Sequence record: MN648445
Strand: one strand, 5' to 3'
Origin: Escherichia phage FP43
DNA: 64,000 bases
Shown one piece after another: positions 835 to 40,365 of the stretch. The position numbers and the translations under genes were made by a program. A model generated the notes under the pieces. The model saw nothing but the letters and a program-made list of their open reading frames with translations, was not told the origin of the DNA and did no database searches. Numbering within the stretch: position 1 is the stretch's first letter; each line of letters opens with the position of its first letter.

Positions 835-3800
835 CTAATTTAACCTGTGGTGGATTCACGGGGTCTCTTGGATTTCCTACATTATCGATTAACCGTTGTT
901 CAACCAAATCTCTAAATCTAGAGAATGTTGTTCCGGACGCATCAAATAATGGGCTCATCAGTTTACGTCGTTCCGATGGAAGTTGACCTTGAAATATGGA
1001 GTTATTGTTTTCAGCGTTATAATCTTCAGGCAATGGATAATCTTGTCCAGCCATAGGGCCTATTTCATATATCGCTTTACCTGTAATAGGGTCAAACTCA
1101 ACATTTCCTTGTGGGTCTAATTTAGCCACTCGGTCTGCATATTTAGTCGGTAATCCAGAATCCCACTTATAGTTTTTGTATTTATTAATAATGGTTTCAA
1201 CATGTTTAAGTGTTAATCCGGTGTTAATAAACATTGTGAGAAGGGTAATTGCGATAAATCCAAATCCAACCGGATGAACAAAACGTAATACGTCTGATTT
1301 CCAACGAGATGATGGAAGTTTAGATTTAATCTTCATTACGTAGTATGCTCTACCACGATTTATGTAATCGATGTTGTTCTGAGAAAGCTCTTTACCTTTA
1401 ATACCACGAACAATTTCACCTTCAAAACCCGGGAGTCTTTCAGCTTTAACTTCCTGTCCTTGGATTAAACGACCTAAGAGGTTGTGAATTGTTACAGTCC
1501 ATTGTAATTTACCTTTAGAGTAACTTCTCTCGATATACGTCACATTACAACGTCCTGTAGCGGTGTATATGGTTTGTCCGACCAAATCTTCTGTCAACGA
1601 ATCAGATTCAATGATGATATCATATTCGGTCCCGGAACTAGATTCAATTTCAATTTCAACATCTTCGTTATAAAGCACTTTAAACAAGAATTTATATGAC
1701 GCTTCAGTTCCTTTAGTTGAATAGAAGTCATAACTTCTTGATTCAAAGAAACGAGACACTAAATCGCGTTTTTCGGCGTTTAAGTAAATGTTTCGTTTAT
1801 AAATCTCAGACCATAAATATTCCCACGCATGTTCTTCTCGCGGATATTGATTTTTAATAAGATTCAAAAGGTTGTTATAATGGGTCCCATAACCGTCAGA
1901 AAGATACTGAATATAAGCCTCGCAGAATGCTTCGAAGTTTGTATTATCTAAAAGATAAGACTCCGGCATCATTGTAGTGAGCAATGGTCGTAAATCTGGG
2001 TCCGCAATGCCGTTCTCTTCTACAGGAGCCCATGTGGTATCTTTTTCTTGGTTTTGTAACGATGCCGTTAAGAATATATTAGTAGGCTTCCAAATTATAG
2101 AAACATTATCTCTAACACGATAACTAAAATCATAATAAGAAATAATCTCACCTGATGATTTATAGAAAATCATGCCGGATGCATATTTTTTAAATCCGGT
2201 GAAATCCACGTTAGGCATCACTATTGTACAGTCACCGTCCTTCCAATATTCATGAACTTCACGGTCTGAAGAACTAAGTGGATGATTCTCAATAACCTTA
2301 GTGTAAAGTAAATCAGAATAAATTACAACGGCCTTGTCTGAGTTATTAATCCAACAACGAGTACCAGACTTTCTAGAATAACTAAAGAATGGCTCAGCAT
2401 AGTATTCCATCGGTTGAGGAGTGAACGATTCCCATTGAGAGTCTTCAGTTGAAATAAATGCCATCATATGATAATGTTTATCAGCCAACCATTCGCGAGG
2501 ATACTCATATTTAACAGCACCGATTAAACCGTACTTGATTTGTGTTTTTGGGTCATCAACAATATCCGATTCTAGAAATTTAAAATTACTAGATGAAATA
2601 GATAACTCAACACCATCAGTAGACATACTGGTGTACCCAGGTTCAATACGACGGCGTTCTTCTTCAGTATTACCAAACACACGTTTAAATGTGCCAGCAT
2701 CATGGTCTAGAACGTAAACGCCCTTATCAGCAGAATCAACAATAGGAGTGGTCCTCGGGTCGTCATTAAGATTAACAACTTCGCCGATAATCAGTGCAAA
2801 TATTTTACCGCCAACAGAATCCATTTTATAGCAAACTGCCTTAGGGTTACCTGTGATGTTAAATGTTTCTTGTTCAAACAAACGTTCGGAATATGTCGGA
2901 GATAACGGGTCTGAATCAATAGGGGCATTACTAGTTTTAATAAAACGAACTTTATCTCGAGCAGCAACGTATACATAATCGTCGTTGCAAACGATAGCTT
3001 CTGCAATACGTGATACGTTAGCAGGTAATGATGCGTAGTTACCAAATATTTCTACATCAAATCCTAAATTTAACTGGTCACCAATTTTAGCAAATGTTAT
3101 ATCTTGAGAACTAAATCTCACATCATCAGCAGACCAACGAACGTCAGTTGATTTACGGCCGTAAAATAATTTATCATACCCAAGAACATACGTGGTATAA
3201 CCTGTCTGGTAATACACTGTTCTTGATACAGGGTACCCTACACGGTCATTAAACAATTTAACCGATTTCCAGGTTTGTCCCTTATCATTAGAGACTTTAA
3301 CCACAGGCTGATACCGTTCAAACAAATAAAGAATTCCTTCAGATTCCATCAAATAAACACGGTTTATATCATGACACACCTGTTGAATCGAACCTTGAAT
3401 TTCATGATACTCATTTTCGCCAATAATGAAATTTTTAATAGATGAAATATCCGCATAAGCAGGGCTAAATTGGAACGATTCATTCATTAGAGCTGCCATT
3501 ATAGTGTCGTTATTAAAATCGACATAAGCCGTGTTGTTATTTGTAAATTTTTCTCTAATAAAAGTGTTAGCCAATTGCATTTCAATCATATGTTGAAATG
3601 TATACGCGTTAGTCTGAAATGATTCAAATATTTCGGTGTATACCCAATCGGATCTCTCGAAGCCTTCAGCGGCAGTTGATACACGAATAATATAAGAAGT
3701 TAATGGGTCTAAGCTACTTTCGAACCAGTTGCTATTAGGAGTATATCCTAAATTTATCCATCTGTAGCTGGCAGGAGGAATTATTTCCCCGTCTGCCGTT

Positions 3801-6718: not shown

Positions 6719-8452
6719 TTACCCAATATCAATACGAGATCCGTCAACAGTGTATTGCCCTGAAGCTACTGAGCTCATTGTAGACATTGTTTCTGCCCAA
6801 TCCCCGGCAACAGTCATATCAACATTACCATTAACAGTCCATTTAACGTTTCCGTTGACGGTGTAATCATGATTCCCTTCGACCTGAGTTTTAGCATCAC
6901 CTTTAACAAGAATATCTGCATTTCCGTCAACAACTATTTTGATATTACCCTTAACGTAAAGAGTTCCATCGCCTTCAACAGTTTTAGATTGGTTACCACG
7001 AATAAAGATTGTGTCATTGCCGTCTATTTGATGGAGGCGGTCTGCCATGTTATAATATATTTCATTAGCACCAACGTTAACAAGCTTATCGCCAGAAATC
7101 AAAAAGTTCCCATCGCCATTAGTGATGTCAAAAAGGTCTTCTACAGTTTTACGAGTACGACGGCCGGATGGAGAAACTTCCTCATATGACCCTGTTGGAT
7201 GAACTAAGCGATAACGTTCATTACCTGGAGTATCGTCAAATTCTTGGATATGACCACTTTCTGTTTCCATAGCATGAACGTATGGATACTCACCACGATA
7301 ACTTGATTCCGGTTCTTTAAAAAGGATGCGTGAATCTAATGGAACAGGAGGACCAGCCGGGTCTTCTGGATCGGTATTTCTAGTAACTAAATCGGCACCA
7401 ACTCCTGGTGAAGGCGGCGTTTTAACAGGAACACCATATGATTCCATGTTACCGGTTAAAATAATTGTTGTTACACGTGAAGCGCGTCCTTTAGTCTGTT
7501 GGAACCATAATGAATCGCGTCCAGATTTGTATGCAGTTTTCCAATCGCCTGTGGCCATTGCTTTAAGCATAGTATTGAATTTTGCTACACCACCAACACC
7601 CATTTGGAAGCACATGTTTTCTAATGCCATTTGACGAGATCTGTTCATTTTAGCATAAACAGGACCTACTTTAGAATTAGAACGAATATCTTTCTGCATC
7701 TTAGCAAGGTCTTTCTCAAATAACGCTGTTGCTTCTTCTAATGTAATAGTTCCCGGATTTCCTGTTACTTCACGCCCTACTTGATCAGATAACAATTTAT
7801 TAATTCGAGACATATCTCGGGTTTTTTCCATTACGATAAGGTGTCCAATACCTACTGTAGGATACCCGAGATGGTCCCAATACACTTTATCACGAAGTCC
7901 TTCGTCACGACGTAACATTTCTGTTATTGTAAAATTAGGGTCATCATCTTCCGGAATATTTGCTAAATCTGTATCATCTGGGTTTATACCGTAATCCAAG
8001 TTGTTATCTTGAATTACGTTAGAGTTTGAATAATAACCAGCTTCACCGCCTTGGTTTAATACGTTCGTATCATTACCTAAACGCCGTGGATACTGGCCTG
8101 TCGGGTCTGAAAAACCTTCAAGTCTATTAGGCTTTTCACGTACAATCCCACCGTATGTACCAAGTACAATCCCATTTGTTTTCCATTTGTCTAAGAAATG
8201 ACCATATACTCGAGTTCCTTCAACAGGACCTGTAACAGAACCACCAATACCTGACATTGATGCAGACGTAATAGGTTGAATAACAGTCATCCATGGAAGT
8301 TTTTCTGTAGGAATACCTTGTACGTCACCTTGTGCTCTCTGTGCTGGATGAAGACCAACGACTCGAACTCGAACTCGCCCTTGTTTTAATGGGTCCATTC
8401 TGTCCTCGACAACACCCACGAACCAATTAAGGCTACTGCTAATCATTTCCAT
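6719..8452 (-). CDS. 5: Baseplate hub subunit and tail lysozyme gp5
   Basis: 577-aa ORF; internal T4-lysozyme-like segment (TVGIGHLIV..., ALENMCFQMGVGGVAKF) and C-terminal VxGxxxV beta-helix repeats. Confidence 0.9.
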   Translation of the reverse strand: MEMISSSLNWFVGVVEDRMDPLKQGRVRVRVVGLHPAQRAQGDVQGIPTEKLPWMTVIQPITSASMSGIGGSVTGPVEGTRVYGHFLDKWKTNGIVLGTYGGIVREKPNRLEGFSDPTGQYPRRLGNDTNVLNQGGEAGYYSNSNVIQDNNLDYGINPDDTDLANIPEDDDPNFTITEMLRRDEGLRDKVYWDHLGYPTVGIGHLIVMEKTRDMSRINKLLSDQVGREVTGNPGTITLEEATALFEKDLAKMQKDIRSNSKVGPVYAKMNRSRQMALENMCFQMGVGGVAKFNTMLKAMATGDWKTAYKSGRDSLWFQQTKGRASRVTTIILTGNMESYGVPVKTPPSPGVGADLVTRNTDPEDPAGPPVPLDSRILFKEPESSYRGEYPYVHAMETESGHIQEFDDTPGNERYRLVHPTGSYEEVSPSGRRTRKTVEDLFDITNGDGNFLISGDKLVNVGANEIYYNMADRLHQIDGNDTIFIRGNQSKTVEGDGTLYVKGNIKIVVDGNADILVKGDAKTQVEGNHDYTVNGNVKWTVNGNVDMTVAGDWAETMSTMSSVASGQYTVDGSRIDIG

Positions 8453-9027
8453 TATGCAATCTCCATCTCACGAATCAAATCAGTAATAAACGAGTTTATA
8501 TCTTCTTTTGCAACAATTTTTATTTTACGAAGTTTTTCATTATCTAATACTGCTGCTTCATAAGTATCTACTGCAGCTAAAGGACCTTTATATTGCGGAT
8601 ACTTACGAGCTTCATCACCTTTATCATACCACACTAAAGGCTCATCCGGATATGAAACTAAATTGTAAAATTTCTCACGGTTCTCGTTAATATGGTAAAG
8701 AATTTGGTCTCCGCCAGCATTTGCATATTTCTGAATAGAAGCTTGATACGCTGCTTCCTGAGATGTAATCCAACCATAATACGGGTCGTAGTTATCGTTG
8801 CACATCAAAAGAACCCAGTATAATTGCGGGTTGCCATAAATGATATTCGCTAGTTCTTCAGGACGCGGAGAGCCTTTAATGTAATAAGAACGTAATCTAT
8901 AATTGGCAGCAACACGCTTAAAGTACTCTTTATAGTTACGAAATATGTCTGTCATAGGAATAGTAGGTGCATTCTTATCAACTGTTTTAGCACTATATCC
9001 TATTGGGTCGAAGAATGTAAATAACAA
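8452..9027 (-). CDS. 53: Baseplate wedge protein gp53
   Basis: 191-aa ORF directly upstream of gp5 on same strand; size and synteny as T4 gp53. Confidence 0.75.
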   Translation of the reverse strand: MLFTFFDPIGYSAKTVDKNAPTIPMTDIFRNYKEYFKRVAANYRLRSYYIKGSPRPEELANIIYGNPQLYWVLLMCNDNYDPYYGWITSQEAAYQASIQKYANAGGDQILYHINENREKFYNLVSYPDEPLVWYDKGDEARKYPQYKGPLAAVDTYEAAVLDNEKLRKIKIVAKEDINSFITDLIREMEIA

Positions 9028-12527: not shown

Positions 12528-12539
12528 TTTCACAAAACA

Positions 12540-16302: not shown

Positions 16303-16340
16303 GTTTACTTCTTCCCTAGATGTGTTACTATAGAACCTAT
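16303..16340 (+). promoter_or_regulatory. Early-type promoter
   Basis: GTTTAC 16303..16308, spacer, TACTAT. Confidence 0.5.
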
Positions 16341-16361
16341 CAACAACATGAGGAAAATGTT

Positions 16362-16865
16362 ATGAGTCTTTACACTGAACTGAATAAAAAATCTGAAGAA
16401 TCTGCTGAAACTATTTTTAAAAACGTGCAAAAGCGTATTTTAGAAAAGATGTATAACGCTGCATCTAAAGGTGAAAAATCTTGCCAGTTTCCGATGAGGT
16501 GTTCTTCTGATTTATGCGCAAATACTATTGAATGGTTGGAAAGTGAAGGTCTTACAGTAGAGAAAAACCCGGCGACTTCTATTGACAGTGAATCATATAT
16601 TAGTATTTCTTGGGATAAATCAAGGGTAGAAGAGAAAGATGGTGATTGGGTTGTAGATGTTAAAACTTCTGATGGTGGACGTTCTGTTGAAGTTTCAGCT
16701 GTAGTTAAAGGTACCCACGAACAAAGGACTTGGGGTTGGGGTGGTGAAGAAAAAGAAATTGTTCTTAGTGTGATTGCCAGGTCAACTAGTAATAAAATTG
16801 CACAAAGCATCATTGACGCTGCAATTGCTGAAGCAGAAAAAATTTGCAAAATTAAAAATAAATGA
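16362..16865 (+). CDS. Hypothetical protein
   Basis: 167-aa ORF from ATG 16362 with GAGGAAAA RBS. Confidence 0.45.
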   Translation: MSLYTELNKKSEESAETIFKNVQKRILEKMYNAASKGEKSCQFPMRCSSDLCANTIEWLESEGLTVEKNPATSIDSESYISISWDKSRVEEKDGDWVVDVKTSDGGRSVEVSAVVKGTHEQRTWGWGGEEKEIVLSVIARSTSNKIAQSIIDAAIAEAEKICKIKNK

Positions 16866-16924
16866 TGTACAAACACCAAGGACGGTGTTACTATAGACTT
16901 ATCAACTACAGAGGAGTAAACAAA

Positions 16925-17089
16925 ATGACTACTTTAATTATTTGGTTCGATGAAAATGAAGAAACATACTGTGTGAATATTGGTGAAAGTCCAATGCCTG
17001 AATTTGAATCCTCGGATAAAAACTCTGTTGTATCTTGGGCTGAAGGTTATAAAGCAGCTAAAGGTGACGTTGAAATAATTTACATCTAA
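16925..17089 (+). CDS. Small hypothetical protein
   Basis: 54-aa ORF with GAGGAG RBS. Confidence 0.35.
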   Translation: MTTLIIWFDENEETYCVNIGESPMPEFESSDKNSVVSWAEGYKAAKGDVEIIYI

Positions 17090-17135: not shown

Positions 17136-17363
17136 ATGGCTAAAGTTAGTATTGATGTAGTTGATTATGAATACACCGAAGAAGTTATTCGCAACCGACA
17201 CCCTGAAGTTCGTATCGATTCAGTCCAAGATTCCAAGTTCTGGACAACTGAGCTTAATCTGAGTGGTCCTTATGAAGCTGTTAAGAAGTTCATGGTTGAA
17301 GAATACTGTGAAGGCATGCACCCCGAAGACGCAAAGTTTTATGTCAATTTGATTAAAAAATAA
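17136..17363 (+). CDS. Hypothetical protein
   Basis: 75-aa ORF with GAGGAAAA RBS. Confidence 0.4.
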   Translation: MAKVSIDVVDYEYTEEVIRNRHPEVRIDSVQDSKFWTTELNLSGPYEAVKKFMVEEYCEGMHPEDAKFYVNLIKK

Positions 17364-32711: not shown

Positions 32712-33185
32712 ATGATTATCAATGAAAACTCTTGGCACTTTAAAATTTATGCCGCGTTCAATAGTACATGGAATCGTCCGAAAACGTTGTGTGCTTATTT
32801 TTGGAAAACGTTAATCCCGGTATTGGCTGTTTCAATTATTGGATTTGCGATTTTAGCAGCAGTCACAATCATTGGCCAGGAAATTTTAACTAAATTCTTT
32901 GTTTTTAGCAGTCTATGGACATTAGTTCCAACCTCAATTGGTGTAGGCATTTTAATTGTAGCAGTCATGGCTTTTATTGCTACCGGGTTAGTAATTGGTC
33001 CGTCTTGGTTGTTAGACAAATATAACGACAGAAAATATTATAAAGAAATTGAGCTCATTGCGCAAAACCAAGAACGAATTAAAAATGGACTTGAGCCTAT
33101 TGAACGTAAGAAATCATTAATAGGTGAATACCTTAAAGCTCGTAAAGAAAAAGTCTGTCCTACTCTTGAATATAAGGCTAAATGA
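32712..33185 (+). CDS. Membrane protein
   Basis: 157 aa with about three hydrophobic helices. Confidence 0.5.
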   Translation: MIINENSWHFKIYAAFNSTWNRPKTLCAYFWKTLIPVLAVSIIGFAILAAVTIIGQEILTKFFVFSSLWTLVPTSIGVGILIVAVMAFIATGLVIGPSWLLDKYNDRKYYKEIELIAQNQERIKNGLEPIERKKSLIGEYLKARKEKVCPTLEYKAK

Positions 33186-34171
33186 TGAAAACAATTATGA
33201 AAGGCTACTTTGGTAGCCACCTTTATGGAACGTCTACTCCTGAATCTGACGTCGATTTTAAAGAAATTTATGTCCCTCATGCTCGTGATATCTTGACCGG
33301 TAACGTTAAAGAACACATGAGCAAGAACACGAATAACACATCTTCTAAGAACACAAAGGACGACGTGGACCATGAGTTATATAGTCTCAAATATTTCTTT
33401 AAACTAGCTGCAGATGGTGAAACCGTCGCATTAGATATGCTTCACACTCCACAAAGTCTAGTAGTTAAATCTGATTTGCCTGATGTATGGAAGTATATTC
33501 AAGATAACAGGTCTCGTTTCTATACCACTAACATGAAATCTTATTTAGGGTATGTCCGTAAGCAAGCTTCTAAATACGGTGTCAAGGGTTCTCGACTGGC
33601 TGTTCTTCGTCAAGCCCTTAAACGTTCTAATGAATGGGGACAATACTTTGATAATGGTGCAGTAATTCGTTTATCACATATGAAGAATGTTCTGCCTGTG
33701 GGTGAATTTGCTTCATGGGTTGAAACCGAAAACGAGAAAACAGGTAAGCAAACATTCTATAATCTGTTAGACCGTAAATTCCAAGATACGTTAACCAATA
33801 AAGAGTTCAATGCCATCCTGGTTAAACTGGAAGAGAACTACGGTGAACGTGCTCGTAAGGCAGAAGCCAACGAAGGTATTGACTGGAAAGCATTGAGTCA
33901 TGCATGTCGTGGTGGACTTCAATTATTGGAAATTTACAAAACCGGCGACCTGGTTTACCCACTTCAGGATGCTCCATTTATTCTCGATGTTAAGCTTGGT
34001 AAACATACGTTTAAAACTGTACAAGAATTCCTAGAAGATATTGTTGACCAAGTTGAACATGCGTCAGAACAAGCTGCCAAGAATGGTATGCAACAAAAAG
34101 TAGATATGAGTTTCTGGGATGATTTCCTTGAGCAAGTCTATCTCGAAAATCATAATTCTTACTATAAATAA
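33182..34171 (+). CDS. Putative nucleotidyltransferase-fold protein
   Basis: 329 aa; N-terminal GSHLYGTSTPESDVDF fits the GS...D-x-D minimal NTase motif. Confidence 0.5.
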   Translation: MMKTIMKGYFGSHLYGTSTPESDVDFKEIYVPHARDILTGNVKEHMSKNTNNTSSKNTKDDVDHELYSLKYFFKLAADGETVALDMLHTPQSLVVKSDLPDVWKYIQDNRSRFYTTNMKSYLGYVRKQASKYGVKGSRLAVLRQALKRSNEWGQYFDNGAVIRLSHMKNVLPVGEFASWVETENEKTGKQTFYNLLDRKFQDTLTNKEFNAILVKLEENYGERARKAEANEGIDWKALSHACRGGLQLLEIYKTGDLVYPLQDAPFILDVKLGKHTFKTVQEFLEDIVDQVEHASEQAAKNGMQQKVDMSFWDDFLEQVYLENHNSYYK

Positions 34172-34202
34172 GTAGATAAATAACCCTTAACTTGAGGTAA
34201 AT

Positions 34203-34463
34203 ATGAAAAAATTAGCAATTGGTTTATTCGCAGTAATGATGGCATTCTCTGTTGGTGCTACCACAGGAGCTGGTGGTGACCAGTCTTCTGGGCCTTCCAA
34301 TGGTTCGGTAAATGCATCACATTCTCAGGGTATTGAGAACATTAAATCAAGCTATATTAATAGCACAGCCGGACAAGCAACTGAAGCATGGTCAAAGGGT
34401 CGAGTAGTTACACGCTCCGTATTCTGTGATATGCCTAATTATGTTGCTAAGTGCGATAAGTAA
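34203..34463 (+). CDS. Small secreted protein
   Basis: 86 aa with signal peptide MKKLAIGLFAVMMAFSVGA; Gly/Ser-rich; followed by hairpin. Confidence 0.5.
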   Translation: MKKLAIGLFAVMMAFSVGATTGAGGDQSSGPSNGSVNASHSQGIENIKSSYINSTAGQATEAWSKGRVVTRSVFCDMPNYVAKCDK

Positions 34464-34467
34464 ATGT

Positions 34468-34487
34468 GGGGACCTTCGGGTCCCTTT
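34468..34487 (+). terminator. UUCG-tetraloop terminator hairpin
   Basis: GGGACC-TTCG-GGTCCC followed by TTT. Confidence 0.6.
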
Positions 34488-34515
34488 AGGGGGTCAAAAT
34501 ATTTTTAAAAAGTAG

Positions 34516-34552
34516 TGTACATGCTTTTAGGATATGTTATTATAGACCTATC
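34516..34552 (+). promoter_or_regulatory. Early-type promoter cassette
   Basis: TGTACA -35 variant, TATTAT -10, TAGACCTATC downstream. Confidence 0.5.
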
Positions 34553-34571
34553 AAAACAAGAGGAGAATAAA

Positions 34572-35552
34572 ATGTTCAACGTTCAAATCAAAAAAGGTAT
34601 CTATCGTAATAACGAAATCTCTGGTTCTTATGTTGCCACAAAGACCTGGTTCCCGGCAAAGCTTAATCCTGAATGTTCCCACTTAGGTGATGGTAAAATT
34701 TTCGTTATGATTGATGGTTCTGAACGTGGAGTATGGGTCTTCAAATCAGACATCGTAATGGAAGGAGTTGAGACATCACCAGTTGCAGTTGTTGAAAGCA
34801 CTGAAGATATGAAAACTCGTATCAACAAACGCTTTAAAGTAATGAACATGATGACGAATGGCATTATCGATGGCAAAATTCGTTCACTCATTATTTCAGG
34901 TGCAGCTGGTATTGGTAAGACGTATTCTCTGGATAAAGCACTTAATAATGCTAATGATAATGGTTTCATCAAATACAAAAGCATTAATGGTAAAATCTCT
35001 GGTATTGGCCTTTACGAACAACTTTGGCTCAACCGTGATGCAGACAGCGTTCTCTTAATCGACGACGTTGACGTATTCTCAGATATGGACATCCTGAACC
35101 TTCTTAAAGCAGCATTAGATACCGGTGATAAACGCAAAGTTTGTTGGAGCACTGCATCATCTTATCTTGATGATAAGGGTATCGATAAAGAATTTGAGTT
35201 TGAAGGTACTATCGTTTTCATTACAAACGTTGATATCGATAAAGAGTTAGAACGTGGTTCGAAACTTGCTCCTCACCTTCAAGCTTTAGTATCTCGTTCA
35301 GTATATCTCGATCTTGGAGTACACTCTAATGAAGAGATTATGGTTCGAGTTGAAGATGTAATATTATCTACTGACATGATGCAGAAACGTGGCTTGACTG
35401 ATGCTGAAACGTATAAAGCATTGTCCTGGATGAAGGCTAATGTATCTCGTCTTCGCAATGTATCATTACGTACGGCTCTTTATGTAGCAGATTTTATTTC
35501 AACCGATAAAGATGGTTGGGAGGAAATCTCCGAAGTAACTTTACTGAAATAA
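34572..35552 (+). CDS. P-loop ATPase (AAA-like), function unknown
   Basis: 326 aa; Walker A GAAGIGKTYS and Walker-B-like VLLIDDVD. Confidence 0.55.
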   Translation: MFNVQIKKGIYRNNEISGSYVATKTWFPAKLNPECSHLGDGKIFVMIDGSERGVWVFKSDIVMEGVETSPVAVVESTEDMKTRINKRFKVMNMMTNGIIDGKIRSLIISGAAGIGKTYSLDKALNNANDNGFIKYKSINGKISGIGLYEQLWLNRDADSVLLIDDVDVFSDMDILNLLKAALDTGDKRKVCWSTASSYLDDKGIDKEFEFEGTIVFITNVDIDKELERGSKLAPHLQALVSRSVYLDLGVHSNEEIMVRVEDVILSTDMMQKRGLTDAETYKALSWMKANVSRLRNVSLRTALYVADFISTDKDGWEEISEVTLLK

Positions 35553-35690: not shown

Positions 35691-35978
35691 ATGGATTTTA
35701 TGCAAAAAATTAAAGCCGCAGTCGAACTCTATGCTCATCGTATGGTTAGTTCTACAATGCAATATAGCGAGGAGGTTCGCCAGGACTCTTCCTTGAAAGG
35801 AAAAACTAAAGCCTTAATTACCTTAGATCGTTTGCAAAAGAATGCCATAGAGATGCTCCAGTACGACAAGGGTGTATATAAGAAAGAACAGGAAGAGAAA
35901 CTTAAATCTGAAAAATTACAAAAAATCCCGAAGTCTGTTTGGTTCAGTGGAAAAAATACCGAAAAAAGTTTCTTTTAG
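35691..35978 (+). CDS. Hypothetical protein
   Basis: 95-aa ORF with GAGGA RBS; overlaps a short upstream ORF. Confidence 0.4.
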   Translation: MDFMQKIKAAVELYAHRMVSSTMQYSEEVRQDSSLKGKTKALITLDRLQKNAIEMLQYDKGVYKKEQEEKLKSEKLQKIPKSVWFSGKNTEKSFF

Positions 35979-35980
35979 TT

Positions 35981-36020
35981 GTTTACAAGGTCTATGGTTG
36001 TGTTATTATAGACCTATCAA
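35981..36020 (+). promoter_or_regulatory. Early promoter cassette (AGGTCTAT / ATAGACCT arms)
   Basis: GTTTAC 35981..35986, TATTAT 36004..36009. Confidence 0.55.
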
Positions 36021-36036
36021 CTACTGGAGGTAAAAC

Positions 36037-36564
36037 ATGAACGCTAAAGATATTTTCAACCTGGTAAATTATAACGACGGTAAATTTAAATCTGAAGCAC
36101 AAAGCAAGTTCTTTAATGACGTTGCTTATGGTAATGAGATTACCGTGGACGGAGGTCAGATTTTCAAATCTCGCTGGAATTGGATTGTTATCATAGATTC
36201 AGTTGGAATTGTGGAAGTCTACAAAAACACTAACAAAAAACGTACATTATTCTGGTCTCGTGAAACTAACGAACAGTACAAAAAGGATAAAGCATCTCGT
36301 TTATCCAAAGTAACCCAGGAAGATATCGAGTTTATCAAGAAAAATATCGAGATGTACGAAAATTTAATCGCTGAAGACCAGGCAGTACTCGATAAGTTTG
36401 ATGAAATTAAAGCTTCTCGTGAAATCCCTGACTTCATGAAAGAAACAGTAAACGAACGATACGCTCTCACTTCAGAACGTATTGCAAACTATACAAAACA
36501 GAAAGCAGAACGTATTAGTACTCTTCGGAAATTTGAAGAACGTTTAAAGACGGTTCACGCATAA
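36037..36564 (+). CDS. Hypothetical protein
   Basis: 175-aa ORF with GGAGG RBS. Confidence 0.45.
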   Translation: MNAKDIFNLVNYNDGKFKSEAQSKFFNDVAYGNEITVDGGQIFKSRWNWIVIIDSVGIVEVYKNTNKKRTLFWSRETNEQYKKDKASRLSKVTQEDIEFIKKNIEMYENLIAEDQAVLDKFDEIKASREIPDFMKETVNERYALTSERIANYTKQKAERISTLRKFEERLKTVHA

Positions 36565-36566
36565 AC

Positions 36567-36591
36567 GCTTTACCCAAGGACGGGTTATAAT
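36567..36591 (+). promoter_or_regulatory. Middle-type promoter (MotA-box-like GCTTTA about 13 nt upstream of TATAAT)
   Basis: GCTTTA 36567..36572, TATAAT 36586..36591. Confidence 0.45.
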
Positions 36592-36626
36592 GGTTTTGAG
36601 TTCCAATTCAATCTGAGGAAATAGTT

Positions 36627-37622
36627 ATGAGCATTACATCTGATGCGGTAAAACATGAAATTAACGGTTTATGTGCTTCACAGATTAAAGTGTGGTTTAA
36701 AGACCATAACGATCGCAGAGCACTTAATTATGAGCAAATTGCTATCCAAGTTCATCAATTACTGACTAGTAAATTTGATTTTCATATGCCGTCTGAAATC
36801 TATACTAATCTGCCGCGAGCACTTATTAAAGCGTGTAAAGGTTATGGAAAATCAATGGCTGATGGAATCTTCAGCGCGCTGAATAAACTTAACGTTCTGT
36901 CGATGATTAACTCTAACAATATCCTGCGTAATCTAGGACGTACTGATTTGTTCGGTCGTGAACAGTGTAAAATGCCTTTGAAATGGATTGTTGCTCATCT
37001 TAACGAGAACCAAACACGTTTTATGGCCGTAACAGCACGTTTACAAATGGGCCTAGATCGTCAGATGAACTTTAAAACTCATCCACGTTATTCAGGTTCA
37101 ACAGACTTTTATAAATGTGAGCTTCAAAAGGTTGGTGGTAAAACTGTCTTAGTAGTTCGTGTAACGTTTGAAGGACGACGTCAAGGATATTTTGACATAA
37201 TCGGCTCTGGTCTTAAACATTGTGGATTTATCGACGAAGTTGATATCAAGCGAGACGGCATTGGATACCGTATTGGGTATGTTTGTACTCTTAAAGAAGA
37301 GATTTCAGGACCAGCTCCAGGTCTAAAAGACGTTAGATATAAAGACGAGCTCGTTGAAGAAATAAAAGAAGTTGAATATGATATCAACCAAGAAGATGCT
37401 CTTAAAGACCTTATTGATGAACTGAACCAAGATGTTATTCCTGTTCAGAAATTTGAATCAAAACATGCTGAGCAAATCAAATACTTTGAAGCTTTGATTA
37501 ACGAACTTAATGTAACTATTCAACAGACTGACGATGAAATCTCACGATTAGCAGGCTTAAACGGTAAAAATAAAACAGAACGAGCTAATCTTATTCAAGT
37601 AGTAAAACTTCTTAAGGAATGA
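36627..37622 (+). CDS. Hypothetical protein with C-terminal coiled coil (member 1 of three tandem genes of similar size)
   Basis: 331-aa ORF; C-terminal heptad-like helix. Confidence 0.5.
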   Translation: MSITSDAVKHEINGLCASQIKVWFKDHNDRRALNYEQIAIQVHQLLTSKFDFHMPSEIYTNLPRALIKACKGYGKSMADGIFSALNKLNVLSMINSNNILRNLGRTDLFGREQCKMPLKWIVAHLNENQTRFMAVTARLQMGLDRQMNFKTHPRYSGSTDFYKCELQKVGGKTVLVVRVTFEGRRQGYFDIIGSGLKHCGFIDEVDIKRDGIGYRIGYVCTLKEEISGPAPGLKDVRYKDELVEEIKEVEYDINQEDALKDLIDELNQDVIPVQKFESKHAEQIKYFEALINELNVTIQQTDDEISRLAGLNGKNKTERANLIQVVKLLKE

Positions 37623-37651
37623 TGTACAACCAAGGATGGTTGGAGTATAAT
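37623..37651 (+). promoter_or_regulatory. Early promoter cassette CAACCAAGGATGGTTGGAGTATAAT
   Basis: TGTACA -35, hairpin CAACCA-AGGA-TGGTTG in spacer, TATAAT 37646..37651; near-identical copy at 38643. Confidence 0.6.
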
Positions 37652-37677
37652 AAATTTTTCAACATGAGGAATATAAA

Positions 37678-38637
37678 ATGGCTTTTATTACACGTAGAGA
37701 ACTTATCAAAGAATTTACCTCGAACGCATATACTCCAGGACCTAATCCTATCCGTATGCCTGTAAAGACTCCTGAAGAGATTGAGGAAATCTGTTCATAT
37801 TATGGGATTACTTCTCGTATGTTTACCCAATTTGAATGCGTTACTAACACACCCGTTAAAGAGTTCATTAAAAATGGTGAGTTCAGCCGTTTATTGGCCA
37901 AACAGAAACTTCGTAATTTTTGTATTGGCGGTGAAGGTCAATATTTCGCTAAGCAGTTCCGGAATAACCTTAACAATCTGATGGCCATTGCTTCTCGTAT
38001 TCGTCCTCAAGCAATTAACATGAAACATTTGAAATATACTTACGATAAGTTAGAAATCATGGTTATCAGTGAGAACGAGTTCACTCTTACGTATAAACCT
38101 AAGAATGATAACGTTGCTCGTGTATTCCACCAAGCGTTGGAAGTTTTAGGTGATAATATCCACCAGATTAAAGCAATTTATTCTCGTGAGCTTAATATTA
38201 TCGACCCTATCAAGAATAAGGGCCATATCGCTATCCAGGCTCGTGTATCTATTAGTAAAAAGGTTCCTGCACCATGGTGGCACAAAGACTCTGAATATTA
38301 TCAAAATCTTAAAAAGGAAAATGCATTGTTTGAAGGCAATATTACAGCAACACCAGTCGGTAATGCAGAGGTTCTAGGCGCATATTCTCCAGCACAATCT
38401 GGTATGTTTAAAGGTTTGCCAAATGTGTGCAAACTGTCGACAGTAAAACTAAACGTTTCTAATGACCTTCTTCCTGCCGAAGACTACCATTATAATCAAA
38501 TCAAGGCCACTGTAGACCAACTATCCGTTGAACTTGATAAAGCACAAGCTAAGCTTCGTGATGCTCAACAGGTGGTGACCAATCTCCAGTTGCAGTACTC
38601 TAAACTTTTTAACGCAATGAATGCATTAAAATCATAA
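37678..38637 (+). CDS. Hypothetical protein with C-terminal coiled coil (member 2)
   Basis: 319-aa ORF. Confidence 0.5.
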   Translation: MAFITRRELIKEFTSNAYTPGPNPIRMPVKTPEEIEEICSYYGITSRMFTQFECVTNTPVKEFIKNGEFSRLLAKQKLRNFCIGGEGQYFAKQFRNNLNNLMAIASRIRPQAINMKHLKYTYDKLEIMVISENEFTLTYKPKNDNVARVFHQALEVLGDNIHQIKAIYSRELNIIDPIKNKGHIAIQARVSISKKVPAPWWHKDSEYYQNLKKENALFEGNITATPVGNAEVLGAYSPAQSGMFKGLPNVCKLSTVKLNVSNDLLPAEDYHYNQIKATVDQLSVELDKAQAKLRDAQQVVTNLQLQYSKLFNAMNALKS

Positions 38638-38642
38638 ATCAG

Positions 38643-38671
38643 TTTACAACCAAGGATGGTTGGAGTATAAT
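38643..38671 (+). promoter_or_regulatory. Early promoter cassette, duplicate of 37623
   Basis: GTTTAC 38643..38648, identical spacer hairpin, TATAAT 38666..38671. Confidence 0.6.
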
Positions 38672-38699
38672 GAACCTATCTTAACGAGAGGAAAATATT

Positions 38700-39647
38700 A
38701 TGACACGTTCACATTACATTGAATACTTTGCCGGTCTTATCGCTAACGCTCACGCTCAACGTGCTATTGGTGCTTGGACTGATGTTCCACATAAAGGTGT
38801 GGTTTATAGTATTCTTCGTGATTTTCTTACATACACAGGCCAAGAAAATCATATCTGTAAAGATACTCAGAATGCGTATTCTCATTCATTAGGGACCCTG
38901 CTTCAATGGTTCAAACGTTCTCGTTTATTATCTTCTACTGTAGCTCGTGATAACATCAAAAACTTTATGAAGCCGAGCTTTATTAAATCTGTGACATCTA
39001 AAACCGATTTGGTTGAATTCACTATTGTTAATGATGTTAAAAAGACTCATTTGGCTGATTGGTTATCTACCATTCCTGAAACTAAATTTGCTGATAAATT
39101 TGCTTATGAATTCAATAACCAAGTGAATATGCTTTTTAAACATTCTCGTAAATTATTCACGGGCGGTGATGGTCGTACAAATAAAGTTCATGTTAAAGAT
39201 TGGGTTACTGCAGTATTCAAACCAACAGGTAATGGTAACGCATCATTGTCAATTGATATCCAGGTTCCTTATTACTACTCACGTAATCTCGGTACCATGA
39301 AAGCCGAAGAAATTAATAAGCACAACAAAACTATTCGTTCGTTGTCTTATAAACTTATTACATTGTTAGAGACTATGGATGTTGTTGAAACGTTCGACGA
39401 ATCCGAAGATAACGGTTCAATGTTATACAGTTCTCGCACCCGAATTAAGCTGAAGAACCCTAACGAGTATAAACTTAAGACTATTAAAGAACCTAAAGTA
39501 GAAAAAGTTGACAACTTGAGCGAAGAACGTGAATATCTCAAATCTCGTCTGAAAGAAGTCGAAGCCCAGATTAAAGAACAGACTAAATCGTTAAAAGCTC
39601 TGAATGCGAAAGCGGACGGTTTACGAAATGCCATTGAGGTGTTATAA
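38700..39647 (+). CDS. Hypothetical protein with C-terminal coiled coil (member 3)
   Basis: 315-aa ORF. Confidence 0.5.
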   Translation: MTRSHYIEYFAGLIANAHAQRAIGAWTDVPHKGVVYSILRDFLTYTGQENHICKDTQNAYSHSLGTLLQWFKRSRLLSSTVARDNIKNFMKPSFIKSVTSKTDLVEFTIVNDVKKTHLADWLSTIPETKFADKFAYEFNNQVNMLFKHSRKLFTGGDGRTNKVHVKDWVTAVFKPTGNGNASLSIDIQVPYYYSRNLGTMKAEEINKHNKTIRSLSYKLITLLETMDVVETFDESEDNGSMLYSSRTRIKLKNPNEYKLKTIKEPKVEKVDNLSEEREYLKSRLKEVEAQIKEQTKSLKALNAKADGLRNAIEVL

Positions 39648-39952
39648 TGAACCTACGTCTTCTAGAGGATATTGATATGAGCACTAATCATGGCTTAGTT
39701 AAGTTTATTGATGATAGTTCAAAGATTGAATTTGTCCAGCGAGATAAAATTCATGGTGAAGAAGAGTTCGTTCCTCCAGCATGGAACGAAATAATGAAAA
39801 TGGTTGAACGACGTGAAAATGCTGCCAAATCGGCAGCAAAACATCCGTGTCCGGAATGTGGAACTATCCAAGTCCAACTGGTTAACTGGACCAGTGATAA
39901 CTTGAAATTGAAATGCCGTAAATGCTTCCACAAATTTGAGAGAACATTATAA
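39647..39952 (+). CDS. Small zinc-ribbon protein
   Basis: 101 aa with CPECG ... CRKC. Confidence 0.45.
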   Translation: MNLRLLEDIDMSTNHGLVKFIDDSSKIEFVQRDKIHGEEEFVPPAWNEIMKMVERRENAAKSAAKHPCPECGTIQVQLVNWTSDNLKLKCRKCFHKFERTL

Positions 39953-40365
39953 TGAGATATAGCCTTCGTTGTTTTATTGCAGCTTTAGTTTTTGCCATTA
40001 TTCCATTCATTTGGAACAGCCAGAATACTTACATGGAAACTAAAGTAATTCCTGTGGAGGTAGTGGAATTAATCTCAGGCCAATCTACAGGAAAATATTC
40101 TAAATTAGAATTTATTGCAGTCTATAAAGACGAGCAAGGACGAGTTTTTGACAGACGTGTATCACCGTCGTTTTATACGCTTCTGAATAAAGGTGATACG
40201 ATAGCTATAGAAATTCGTGAGATGGATATCAAACAAACTACTAAAGATAACTTGATTTGGTTCTTTGGTACAGTGTTGTTGGTTTCTATCTGTATCACAG
40301 GTTTTATTACATGTATTGTATTTGGCATTGCATATTTAATCGATGAAAGGAAAAATAATGTTTAA
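39952..40365 (+). CDS. Membrane protein
   Basis: 137 aa with N- and C-terminal hydrophobic helices. Confidence 0.45.
   Translation: MRYSLRCFIAALVFAIIPFIWNSQNTYMETKVIPVEVVELISGQSTGKYSKLEFIAVYKDEQGRVFDRRVSPSFYTLLNKGDTIAIEIREMDIKQTTKDNLIWFFGTVLLVSICITGFITCIVFGIAYLIDERKNNV

Follow-up and report, generated by a model that had tools for sequence, protein, structure and literature searches.

Tandem genes and hairpin-bearing promoter cassettes in the nrdC region of Escherichia phage FP43: evidence for a family of divergent paralogues

Why should a phage keep three genes of almost the same length in a row, and why should the same short sequence stand in front of two of them? The question is raised by Escherichia phage FP43 (sequence record MN648445), of which a stretch of 64,000 nucleotides (nt), here called the window, was analysed. 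The genes, here named g1, g2 and g3, are open reading frames (ORFs) of 331, 319 and 315 amino acids (aa), all on the + strand. A first-pass annotation of this DNA had rightly described them as three tandem genes of 315-331 aa and had offered two readings, a diversified array of paralogues or a shuffling of genes mediated by cassettes. Both are supported, and they are compatible with each other. The explanation we favour, with a probability of roughly three in four, is that of three self-promoted early genes of one divergent family, equipped with promoter-early stem-loop (PeSL) cassettes that carry a conserved hairpin in the promoter spacer, and of an insertion or deletion of g2 by recombination between the repeats. 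PeSL recombination modules and the nrdC ORFs of T4 are both already known kinds.

The locus shares 97% DNA identity with the Mosigviruses, the RB69 group of T-even phages, and can be identified as the nrdC.6/nrdC.5/nrdC.3 segment of such an RB69-like member of the T4 family, upstream of nrdC. The nrdC.6-nrdC.3 region is a hyperplastic, non-essential early region. Gene identities were taken from annotated relatives and from BLASTP against the T4-type phage RB32; they yield the order nrdC.11, nrdC.10 and nrdC.8 upstream of g1-g3, and nrdC.2, nrdC.7 and nrdC downstream. The protein of g1 matches phrog_2257. That of g2 fits the Pfam model PF23882 (DUF7235) with an E value of 1e-119 and 399.9 bits (cut-off 30), residues 15-318 being covered; neither g1 nor g3 matches this model. 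The protein of g3 is related not only to RB32 NrdC.3 but, at a BLASTP E of 3e-5, also to RB32 NrdC.4.

The promoter cassettes and the presence or absence of g2

An identical cassette before the second and third genes had been noted in the first pass as a 25-mer, CAACCAAGGATGGTTGGAGTATAAT. It occurs exactly twice, at 37627-37651 and 38647-38671, and found no match in 100 shuffles, even with 3 mismatches allowed. By direct reading the identity is actually 27 nt long (TACAACCAAGGATGGTTGGAGTATAAT; TACAACC...TATAAT; 37625-37651 and 38645-38671), and the two copies lie 1020 bp apart. A related cassette with a weaker hairpin, absent from the earlier description, also precedes g1; its site is an annotated T4 middle-type promoter in phage SA79RD, and a perfect hairpin occupies the equivalent place in T4-type, Gaprivervirus and Dhakavirus genomes.

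A promoter scan returned copy 2 (TTTACA-17-TATAAT, 11/12, 38643-38671; an annotated promoter in SA79RD) and copy 1 (TGTACA-17-TATAAT, 10/12, 37623-37651) as the best matches in the region, each directed at the next gene. The region contains 14 promoter-like sites, against 14.9 expected from shuffles; the total is not raised, and it is only by their place and quality that the best sites are informative. To judge from their boxes, the promoter of g1 would be of the MotA type and those of g2 and g3 of the sigma-70/T4-early type. The stop codons of g1 and g2 occupy 37620-37622 and 38635-38637, respectively, and, by direct reading, GAGG stands about 8 nt 5' of the ATGs at 37678 (g2) and 38700 (g3).

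In a PeSL the stop codon of the preceding gene comes first, then a -35 and a -10 box with the stem-loop between them, and finally a Shine-Dalgarno sequence and the ATG (Arbiol 2010, PMC2839356; Comeau 2014, PMC4122927), the place between the two boxes being one of the commonest for the stem-loop (PMC2839356). The cassettes of FP43 are PeSL elements; they display all the defining features that can be tested. They are intergenic and oriented towards the downstream gene, their -35 and -10 boxes are separated by a 17-nt spacer that holds the stem-loop, and they are framed by an upstream stop and a downstream Shine-Dalgarno sequence and start codon. They are repeated in hyperplastic regions, with several copies per genome, and the gene indels of relatives are bounded by cassettes and have left a chimeric cassette behind. 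A crossover within the loop, as reported for the mini-circles of phage RB49 (PMC2839356), is suggested here for phage ESCO47 (see below). There are, however, differences: the stem is short and not based on runs of G or C, the loop CA-AGGA-YG is invariant while the stem covaries, and the AGGA subclass is found at few places only, i.e., at the nrdC.3-8 locus, at the dexA-motB locus and in one other promoter. The PeSL papers (PMC2839356, PMC4122927) did not analyse Mosigvirus. A further parallel is offered by the loci for internal proteins (IP) of T-even phages (Repoila 1994, taken up in PMC2839356 and PMC4122927): arrays of diversified, injected or early anti-host genes that are shuffled among these phages, each gene having an early promoter of the T4 type and a weak, AT-rich stem-loop. 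They belong, however, to another protein family and another locus, and IP proteins are small and packaged into the capsid.

The behaviour of g2 among the relatives bears directly on the shuffling of genes. It is present in 132 phage records; in 21 of the 153 related records, i.e., about one in seven, it is missing, and g1, one cassette and g3 are contiguous. The junction was read directly in three g2-less genomes, G2285, F2 and ESCO47. In G2285 the left flank of the g1/g2 cassette and the right flank of the g2/g3 cassette, both identical, enclose the 27-nt core; this junction is the exact product of homologous recombination within the 27-nt repeat, be it a 1020-bp deletion or the reverse. Phage F2 has the same left flank and core, and its right flank is of the g2/g3 type except for a few substitutions just 3' of TATAAT. 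The remaining cassette of ESCO47 has mismatched arms (CAACCA...CGGATG), which suggests a crossover in or near the loop. As other genera have nrdC.5 at this position, parsimony favours a loss of g2; alternatively, g2 may have been re-inserted through a circle. Recombination between cassette copies removes one gene precisely and leaves the neighbours undisturbed. The cassette-mediated shuffling that had been proposed for this array is thereby borne out, and public genomes show both its substrate (two 27-nt repeats) and its product (one hybrid cassette). The gain and loss of gene modules mediated by PeSL, described but little documented, has here a clean natural example in the RB69 group.

The synteny comparison with other T4-like phages, which the first pass had recommended, points the same way: the composition of the array varies between genera at cassette positions. 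With c for a cassette and the suffixes of the nrdC genes as numbers, the order is c-7-6-5-c-4-c-3 in T4-type phages, c-6-c-5-c-3 in Mosigvirus and c-6-(small ORF)-5-c-4 in Gaprivervirus and Dhakavirus. A deletion is also seen in the T4-like phage ACG-C40 (5805-6213), where nrdC.5 is reduced to its first ~70 codons and nrdC.3 to its last ~70, the greater part of both genes and the whole of nrdC.4 being absent through a natural deletion.

The hairpin within the cassettes has a 6-bp stem and an AGGA loop, sits in the promoter spacer and is present in the minimum-free-energy fold of copy 1. It always starts 4-12 nt 3' of the upstream stop codon. Its conservation was assessed in 11 distinct cassettes, which had been picked by a scan for CAAGGAYG in intergenic promoter contexts and may therefore be biased to some extent by this selection. 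All 11 share an invariant core, CAAGGA.G. The stem is paired in 83% of the cells, compared with 63% in shuffles (none of 500 reached the observed value) and 22-44% in slid controls; its covariation score is 0.50 versus 0.14, and five of eight pairs change on both sides. A search of Rfam with positions 35900-40000 revealed no family.

RB32 has such hairpins before nrdC.7 (TTATACCA/TGGTATAA), nrdC.4 (CCACA/TGTGG) and nrdC.3 (AGCCA/TGGCT), and in Gaprivervirus and Dhakavirus the element also precedes nrdC.6 and nrdC.4. Mosigvirus genomes contain 3-4 cassette copies, at the nrdC and dexA-motB loci; those before motB and motB.1 have the stems CATCCA/TGGATG and CAACCA/TGGTTG, the former being a compensatory stem variant. 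At the dexA-motB locus the copies lie at 8357-8372 and 8914-8929 of the SA79RD sequence and at 3006-3021 of that of RB69. The motB.1 copy and the g2/g3 cassette of the window have ~65 nt in common, the 5' untranslated region included.

Evidence for paralogy of the three genes

Are the three proteins related at all? By pairwise comparison one would not say so: the best BLASTP E among them is ~0.1, in agreement with the earlier remark that no similarity is obvious, and hhalign on shallow alignments from a large protein search gave no link among them. The families are very narrow, with 4, 19 and 34 clusters in 5.8 billion proteins, and an exhaustive scan of 1.84 billion proteins yielded six representatives only for g1.

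The picture changes with profiles that were enriched with orthologues from RB32 (Tequatrovirus), VR26 (Gaprivervirus) and AnYang (Dhakavirus) and compared by hhalign. The NrdC.3 family (F3) matches NrdC.4 (F4) with a probability of 97% and an E of 2e-11 (5.5e-12 without the coiled coil), and the family of g2 and NrdC.5 (F5) matches the combined NrdC.3+4 profile (F34) with a probability of 92% and an E of 8e-7 (6.9e-6 without the coiled coil); all these alignments are full length. The family of g1 and NrdC.6 (F6) was initially borderline, with E between 0.003 and 0.04. In the vicinity of nrdC, Citrobacter phage Moon, Klebsiella phage KP179 and Acinetobacter phage AbTZA1 have genes for proteins of ~320-336 aa that match the merged profile (E 1.7e-5 to 1.7e-3), unlike unrelated neighbours (E at least 0.09). 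With these proteins included, F6 matches the superfamily profile (FS) with a probability of 93% and an E of 2.6e-7 (1.6e-5 without the coiled coil). Controls remained far behind. Reversed profiles gave E values of 0.015-0.8 (0.46-0.7 in the comparison of F6 with FS) and unrelated neighbouring proteins 0.1-0.46; the nrdC.8 homologue, with an E of only 0.18 against the superfamily profile, stays outside the family. Thirty column-block-shuffled profiles per comparison scored at most 26-31, versus 42-56 observed, and the best E of such controls was 0.0018-0.0056 (comparisons F6_N vs FS_N, F6 vs FS and F5 vs F34). Further, the secondary structures of g1 and g3 modelled by AlphaFold2 agree at 72% of the positions aligned by hhalign, as opposed to 25-41% when shifted by 20-40 residues.

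The proteins have a common plan. It begins with an N-terminal helical domain with the motif phi-K-x3-phi-S...phi-R-N-F, continues with a helix that ends in A-x-R-L and a small beta/alpha unit, and closes, after a variable linker, with a C-terminal heptad helix. The last feature had been recognised early as a C-terminal coiled coil in each gene, and it stands: by our own crude heptad score, with 200 shuffles per protein, the maximum lies at the C-terminus of all three, at residues 281-310 of g1 (reached by 2/200 shuffles), 267-319 of g2 (0/200; z 4.1) and 278-315 of g3 (0/200), and AlphaFold2 predicts long helices there in g1 and g3. The helix probably serves oligomerisation. Two short metagenomic proteins, P0061 (129 aa) and P0062 (88 aa), share with T4-type NrdC.6 only the C-terminal coiled coil, behind N-termini that are unrelated. 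Such proteins may stem from truncated or chimeric genes or from fragments of assemblies.

Structure searches added little. With the g1 model, Foldseek found significant full-length matches to ~300-335-aa proteins of T4-like phages of Acinetobacter, Enterobacter and Klebsiella; with the g3 model it found in BFVD only the protein's own family. A PDB sequence search with g1, g2, g3 and T4-type NrdC.5 revealed no relatives, no recognisable fold was found, and an NCBIfam search of the proteins gave nothing meaningful.

Taken together, the profiles support the view that g1, g2 and g3 are very divergent paralogues of one family, to which T4 NrdC.4 and the ~320-340-aa near-nrdC proteins of Moonvirus, Jiaodavirus and Acinetobacter T4-like phages would also belong; g1 is its most divergent member. 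The diversified array of paralogues that had been suspected has thus gained support, with links at E ~1e-7 that survive removal of the coiled coil and exceed the reversed and shuffled controls. Some observations weigh against it. The models are of limited quality, with predicted local distance difference test scores (pLDDT) of 68.9 for g1 and a poor 52.7 for g3; Foldseek with the g1 model returned none of the NrdC.3, NrdC.4 or NrdC.5 entries of BFVD; and g1 as a single sequence reaches an E of only 0.02 against the superfamily profile, which is no better than the value for one unrelated ORF of the window. It is accordingly by family profiles of 9-26 sequences, aligned with MAFFT, that g1 is counted as a member.

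One could take these points, together with the lack of similarity by BLASTP or shallow profiles and the three separate families to which Pfam and PHROGs assign the genes, as signs of three unrelated ORFans that acquired their similar length and coiled-coil tails by convergence. The repeat would then be nothing but a strong promoter kept by selection, with no role in rearrangement, and it does indeed fit the promoter consensus well. This explanation, however, has to ignore that enriched profiles reach E ~1e-7, or ~1e-5 without the very coiled coil that is said to have converged, far above the shuffled controls, that the order of secondary structures agrees between g1 and g3, and that T4 NrdC.4 bridges NrdC.3 and NrdC.5. 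Nor does it account for 21 genomes in which g2 is deleted, with the junction within the 27-nt core in G2285 and F2 and around the loop in ESCO47. Profile and junction data together largely refute it, and we consider it improbable.

Three aspects appear not to have been stated in the literature examined: NrdC.3, NrdC.4, NrdC.5 and NrdC.6 as one superfamily across Straboviridae, the presence/absence polymorphism of g2 with its exact junction, and the AGGA-loop hairpin subclass with its covariation. The first joins four "hypothetical" T4 gene families that are separate in Pfam and PHROGs.

Table 1. Positions of the features discussed (numbering of the window)
Feature	Position	Strand	Evidence or description
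nrdC.8 homologue (175 aa), upstream neighbour	36037..36564	+	83% identity to RB32 NrdC.8
Cassette before g1	36566..36591	+	MotA-box-like CGCTTTA 36566-36572; imperfect hairpin ACCC/AAGGAC/GGGT 36572-36585; -10 TATAAT 36586-36591
g1, 331 aa, Mosigvirus form of T4 nrdC.6	36627..37622	+	33% identity to RB32 NrdC.6, E 3e-33
g1 C-terminal heptad-repeat helix, aa 281-330	37467..37619	+	heptad score; AlphaFold2 helices 281-309 and 313-330
Cassette copy 1	37623..37651	+	-35-like TGTACA 37623-37628; hairpin CAACCA-AGGA-TGGTTG 37627-37642; GGAG 37642-37645; -10 TATAAT 37646-37651
g2, 319 aa, Mosigvirus form of T4 nrdC.5	37678..38637	+	24% identity to RB32 NrdC.5, BLASTP E 1e-10
g2 C-terminal heptad-repeat segment, aa 267-319	38476..38634	+	heptad score
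Cassette copy 2	38642..38671	+	-35 GTTTAC/TTTACA 38642-38648; hairpin CAACCA-AGGA-TGGTTG 38647-38662; GGAG 38662-38665; -10 TATAAT 38666-38671
g3, 315 aa, Mosigvirus form of T4 nrdC.3, paralogue of T4 nrdC.4	38700..39647	+	56% identity to RB32 NrdC.3
g3 C-terminal helix / heptad repeat, aa 274-315	39519..39644	+	AlphaFold2 helix 274-314; heptad score
Fourth AGGA-class hairpin, AACACC/AAGGAC/GGTGTT	16872..16889	+	CAAGGAYG scan; in minimum-free-energy fold; spacer of another early promoter

Possible roles of the hairpin and of the proteins

Transcripts from a cassette's own promoter do not contain the hairpin, which must therefore act on read-through RNA or on DNA. On read-through transcripts it would work as an attenuator or as a protector of 3' ends, possibly in concert with a cut by RegB in the adjoining GGAGUAUAAU. 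A role as a fixed protein-binding site of the promoter was considered and judged unlikely; depending on the cassette, the hairpin stands anywhere between 3 and 10 nt from the -10 box.

One may go further and see in the hairpin and GGAGUAUAAU mainly a device for RNA processing. RegB, with S1, would cut GGAG just 3' of the hairpin on read-through early transcripts, so that a protective stem-loop would close the upstream cistron, which would no longer be coupled to the downstream one; recombination between cassettes would be a by-product. The sequence GGAGUAUAAUA matches the RegB/S1 consensus GGAGRAYARAA at ~9 of 11 positions and would be single-stranded beside the stem (PMC1702504). By our own reading, 7 of the 11 aligned cassettes have GGAG directly after or within the 3' arm, and the G-U pairs in two stems fit a structure of the sense-strand RNA; the variable distance from loop to -10 box speaks against a fixed geometry of DNA and protein. 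The RegB/S1 sites of T4 early mRNAs (Durand 2006, PMC1702504) likewise combine GGAG with an A/U-rich stretch and are found between genes in early transcripts. Here, however, GGAG does not serve the downstream gene as Shine-Dalgarno sequence but overlaps spacer and -10 box, and the 11-nt match is partial: position 10 is occupied by U, rarely seen there in cleaved T4 sites (3/26), and position 5 has U instead of a purine. The T4-type cassettes before nrdC.4 and nrdC.7 have no GGAG, the motif could simply be promoter spacer, and RegB cleavage at the cassettes is putative. As the main purpose of the cassettes, RNA processing thus appears unlikely to us. The classical PeSL reading, an intrinsic terminator or attenuator that insulates each gene, fares slightly worse still. 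PeSL stem-loops of RB49 have been shown to terminate transcription (PMC2839356), and the constant position of the hairpin shortly after the upstream stop codon fits such a role. But the stem has only 5-6 bp (8 in the cassette downstream of nrdC.8 in T4-type phages and Dhakavirus), its stability is ~-7 kcal/mol, and it is followed by GAGTATAAT instead of a U-tract. This makes a classical terminator doubtful. As an intrinsic (rho-independent) terminator the hairpin was rejected for want of a U-tract; a terminator scan reported nothing at either cassette. The recombining, self-promoting cassette with a hairpin that would act on read-through RNA remains the version we prefer.

As to the proteins, there is a sole functional datum in the entire family: T4 nrdC.5 restores growth on cells with the Dsr1 (SIR2) defence of E. 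coli ECOR17 (Srikant 2022, PMC9391042). The protein of g2 is its homologue by position and sequence (DUF7235), and its early, non-essential nature and its loss in some lineages are what one expects of a host-specific accessory gene. Yet g2 is only 24% identical to T4-type NrdC.5, and the anti-Dsr1 activity is therefore not confidently transferable. By analogy with T4 NrdC.5, the proteins of g1-g3 would be host-specific counter-defence factors; early expression, dispensability, presence/absence polymorphism, extreme divergence and a likely oligomerising tail all fit this idea. For the family as a whole we hold it tentatively, at somewhat less than even odds, and any particular target is less likely than that. 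The most far-reaching version, to be taken with a little more reserve than the general idea, would be that NrdC.3, NrdC.4, NrdC.5 and NrdC.6 and their ~320-aa near-nrdC relatives in Straboviridae form one fast-evolving, coiled-coil-tailed counter-defence family, each paralogue being adapted to its own immune effector of the host (of the Dsr1/SIR2 type or another), and that the AGGA-hairpin promoter cassettes are the device by which paralogues are gained, lost and swapped as self-expressed units. The link of NrdC.3, NrdC.4 and NrdC.6 to the NrdC.5 family is made here and not in the work on Dsr1 (PMC9391042). If the idea is true, a difference in host range on E. coli with defence systems is to be expected between natural Mosigviruses with and without g2. 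Such viruses are ready-made, isogenic-like phage pairs for testing, and the superfamily provides a concrete list of candidate counter-defence genes.

Neighbouring genes and other repeats

In many GenBank records (e.g., those of ATK47, ESCO47 and AV114) the homologues of nrdC.2-nrdC.11, those of g1-g3 included, carry the product label "thioredoxin". None of the homologues so labelled matches any thioredoxin family; the label is a propagated annotation error, and its source seems to be the gene-name prefix nrdC.

Upstream, window positions 33182-35552 encode an NrdC.11-like nucleotidyltransferase (Pfam RlaP, RNA-repair-associated) and an NrdC.10-like ATPase of the AAA/STAND type with a possible C-terminal helix-turn-helix domain, uncharacterised early proteins that might have a bearing on host defence. 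Downstream, a membrane ORF resembling nrdC.7 (39952-40365) lies between nrdC.2 and nrdC, where it takes the place of nrdC.1 in Mosigvirus; in T4-type phages nrdC.7 sits between nrdC.8 and nrdC.6, which amounts to a relocation inside the same hyperplastic region. Within the last codons of g3, at 39620-39648, there is a further good sigma-70-like promoter, TTTACG-17-TATAAT with a TG extension; SA79RD is annotated with an early promoter there. The -10 box of this promoter overlaps both the stop codon of g3 and the start codon of nrdC.2, and its transcript would therefore begin inside nrdC.2.

The fourth AGGA-class hairpin of Table 1 lies far from the nrdC genes, just 3' of the stop codon of a 181-aa ORF (16320-16865), and precedes a small ORF with a likely start at 16925. 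The window also contains, between 12534 and 52957, many other repeated intergenic cassettes, which combine an early promoter of the T4 type (GTTTAC ... TATAGT/TACTAT) with a longer inverted repeat across the -10 box, e.g., GATAGGACTA...TAGTCCTATC; in T-even phages this is the form that a PeSL more usually takes. These cassettes start at 12534, 12889, 13220, 16295, 17076, 20171, 21454, 21735, 27699, 31370, 31818, 34496, 35962, 45819, 47252 and 52952. Over 62 nt, the two copies of this type at 17350 and 47252 share 92% identity.

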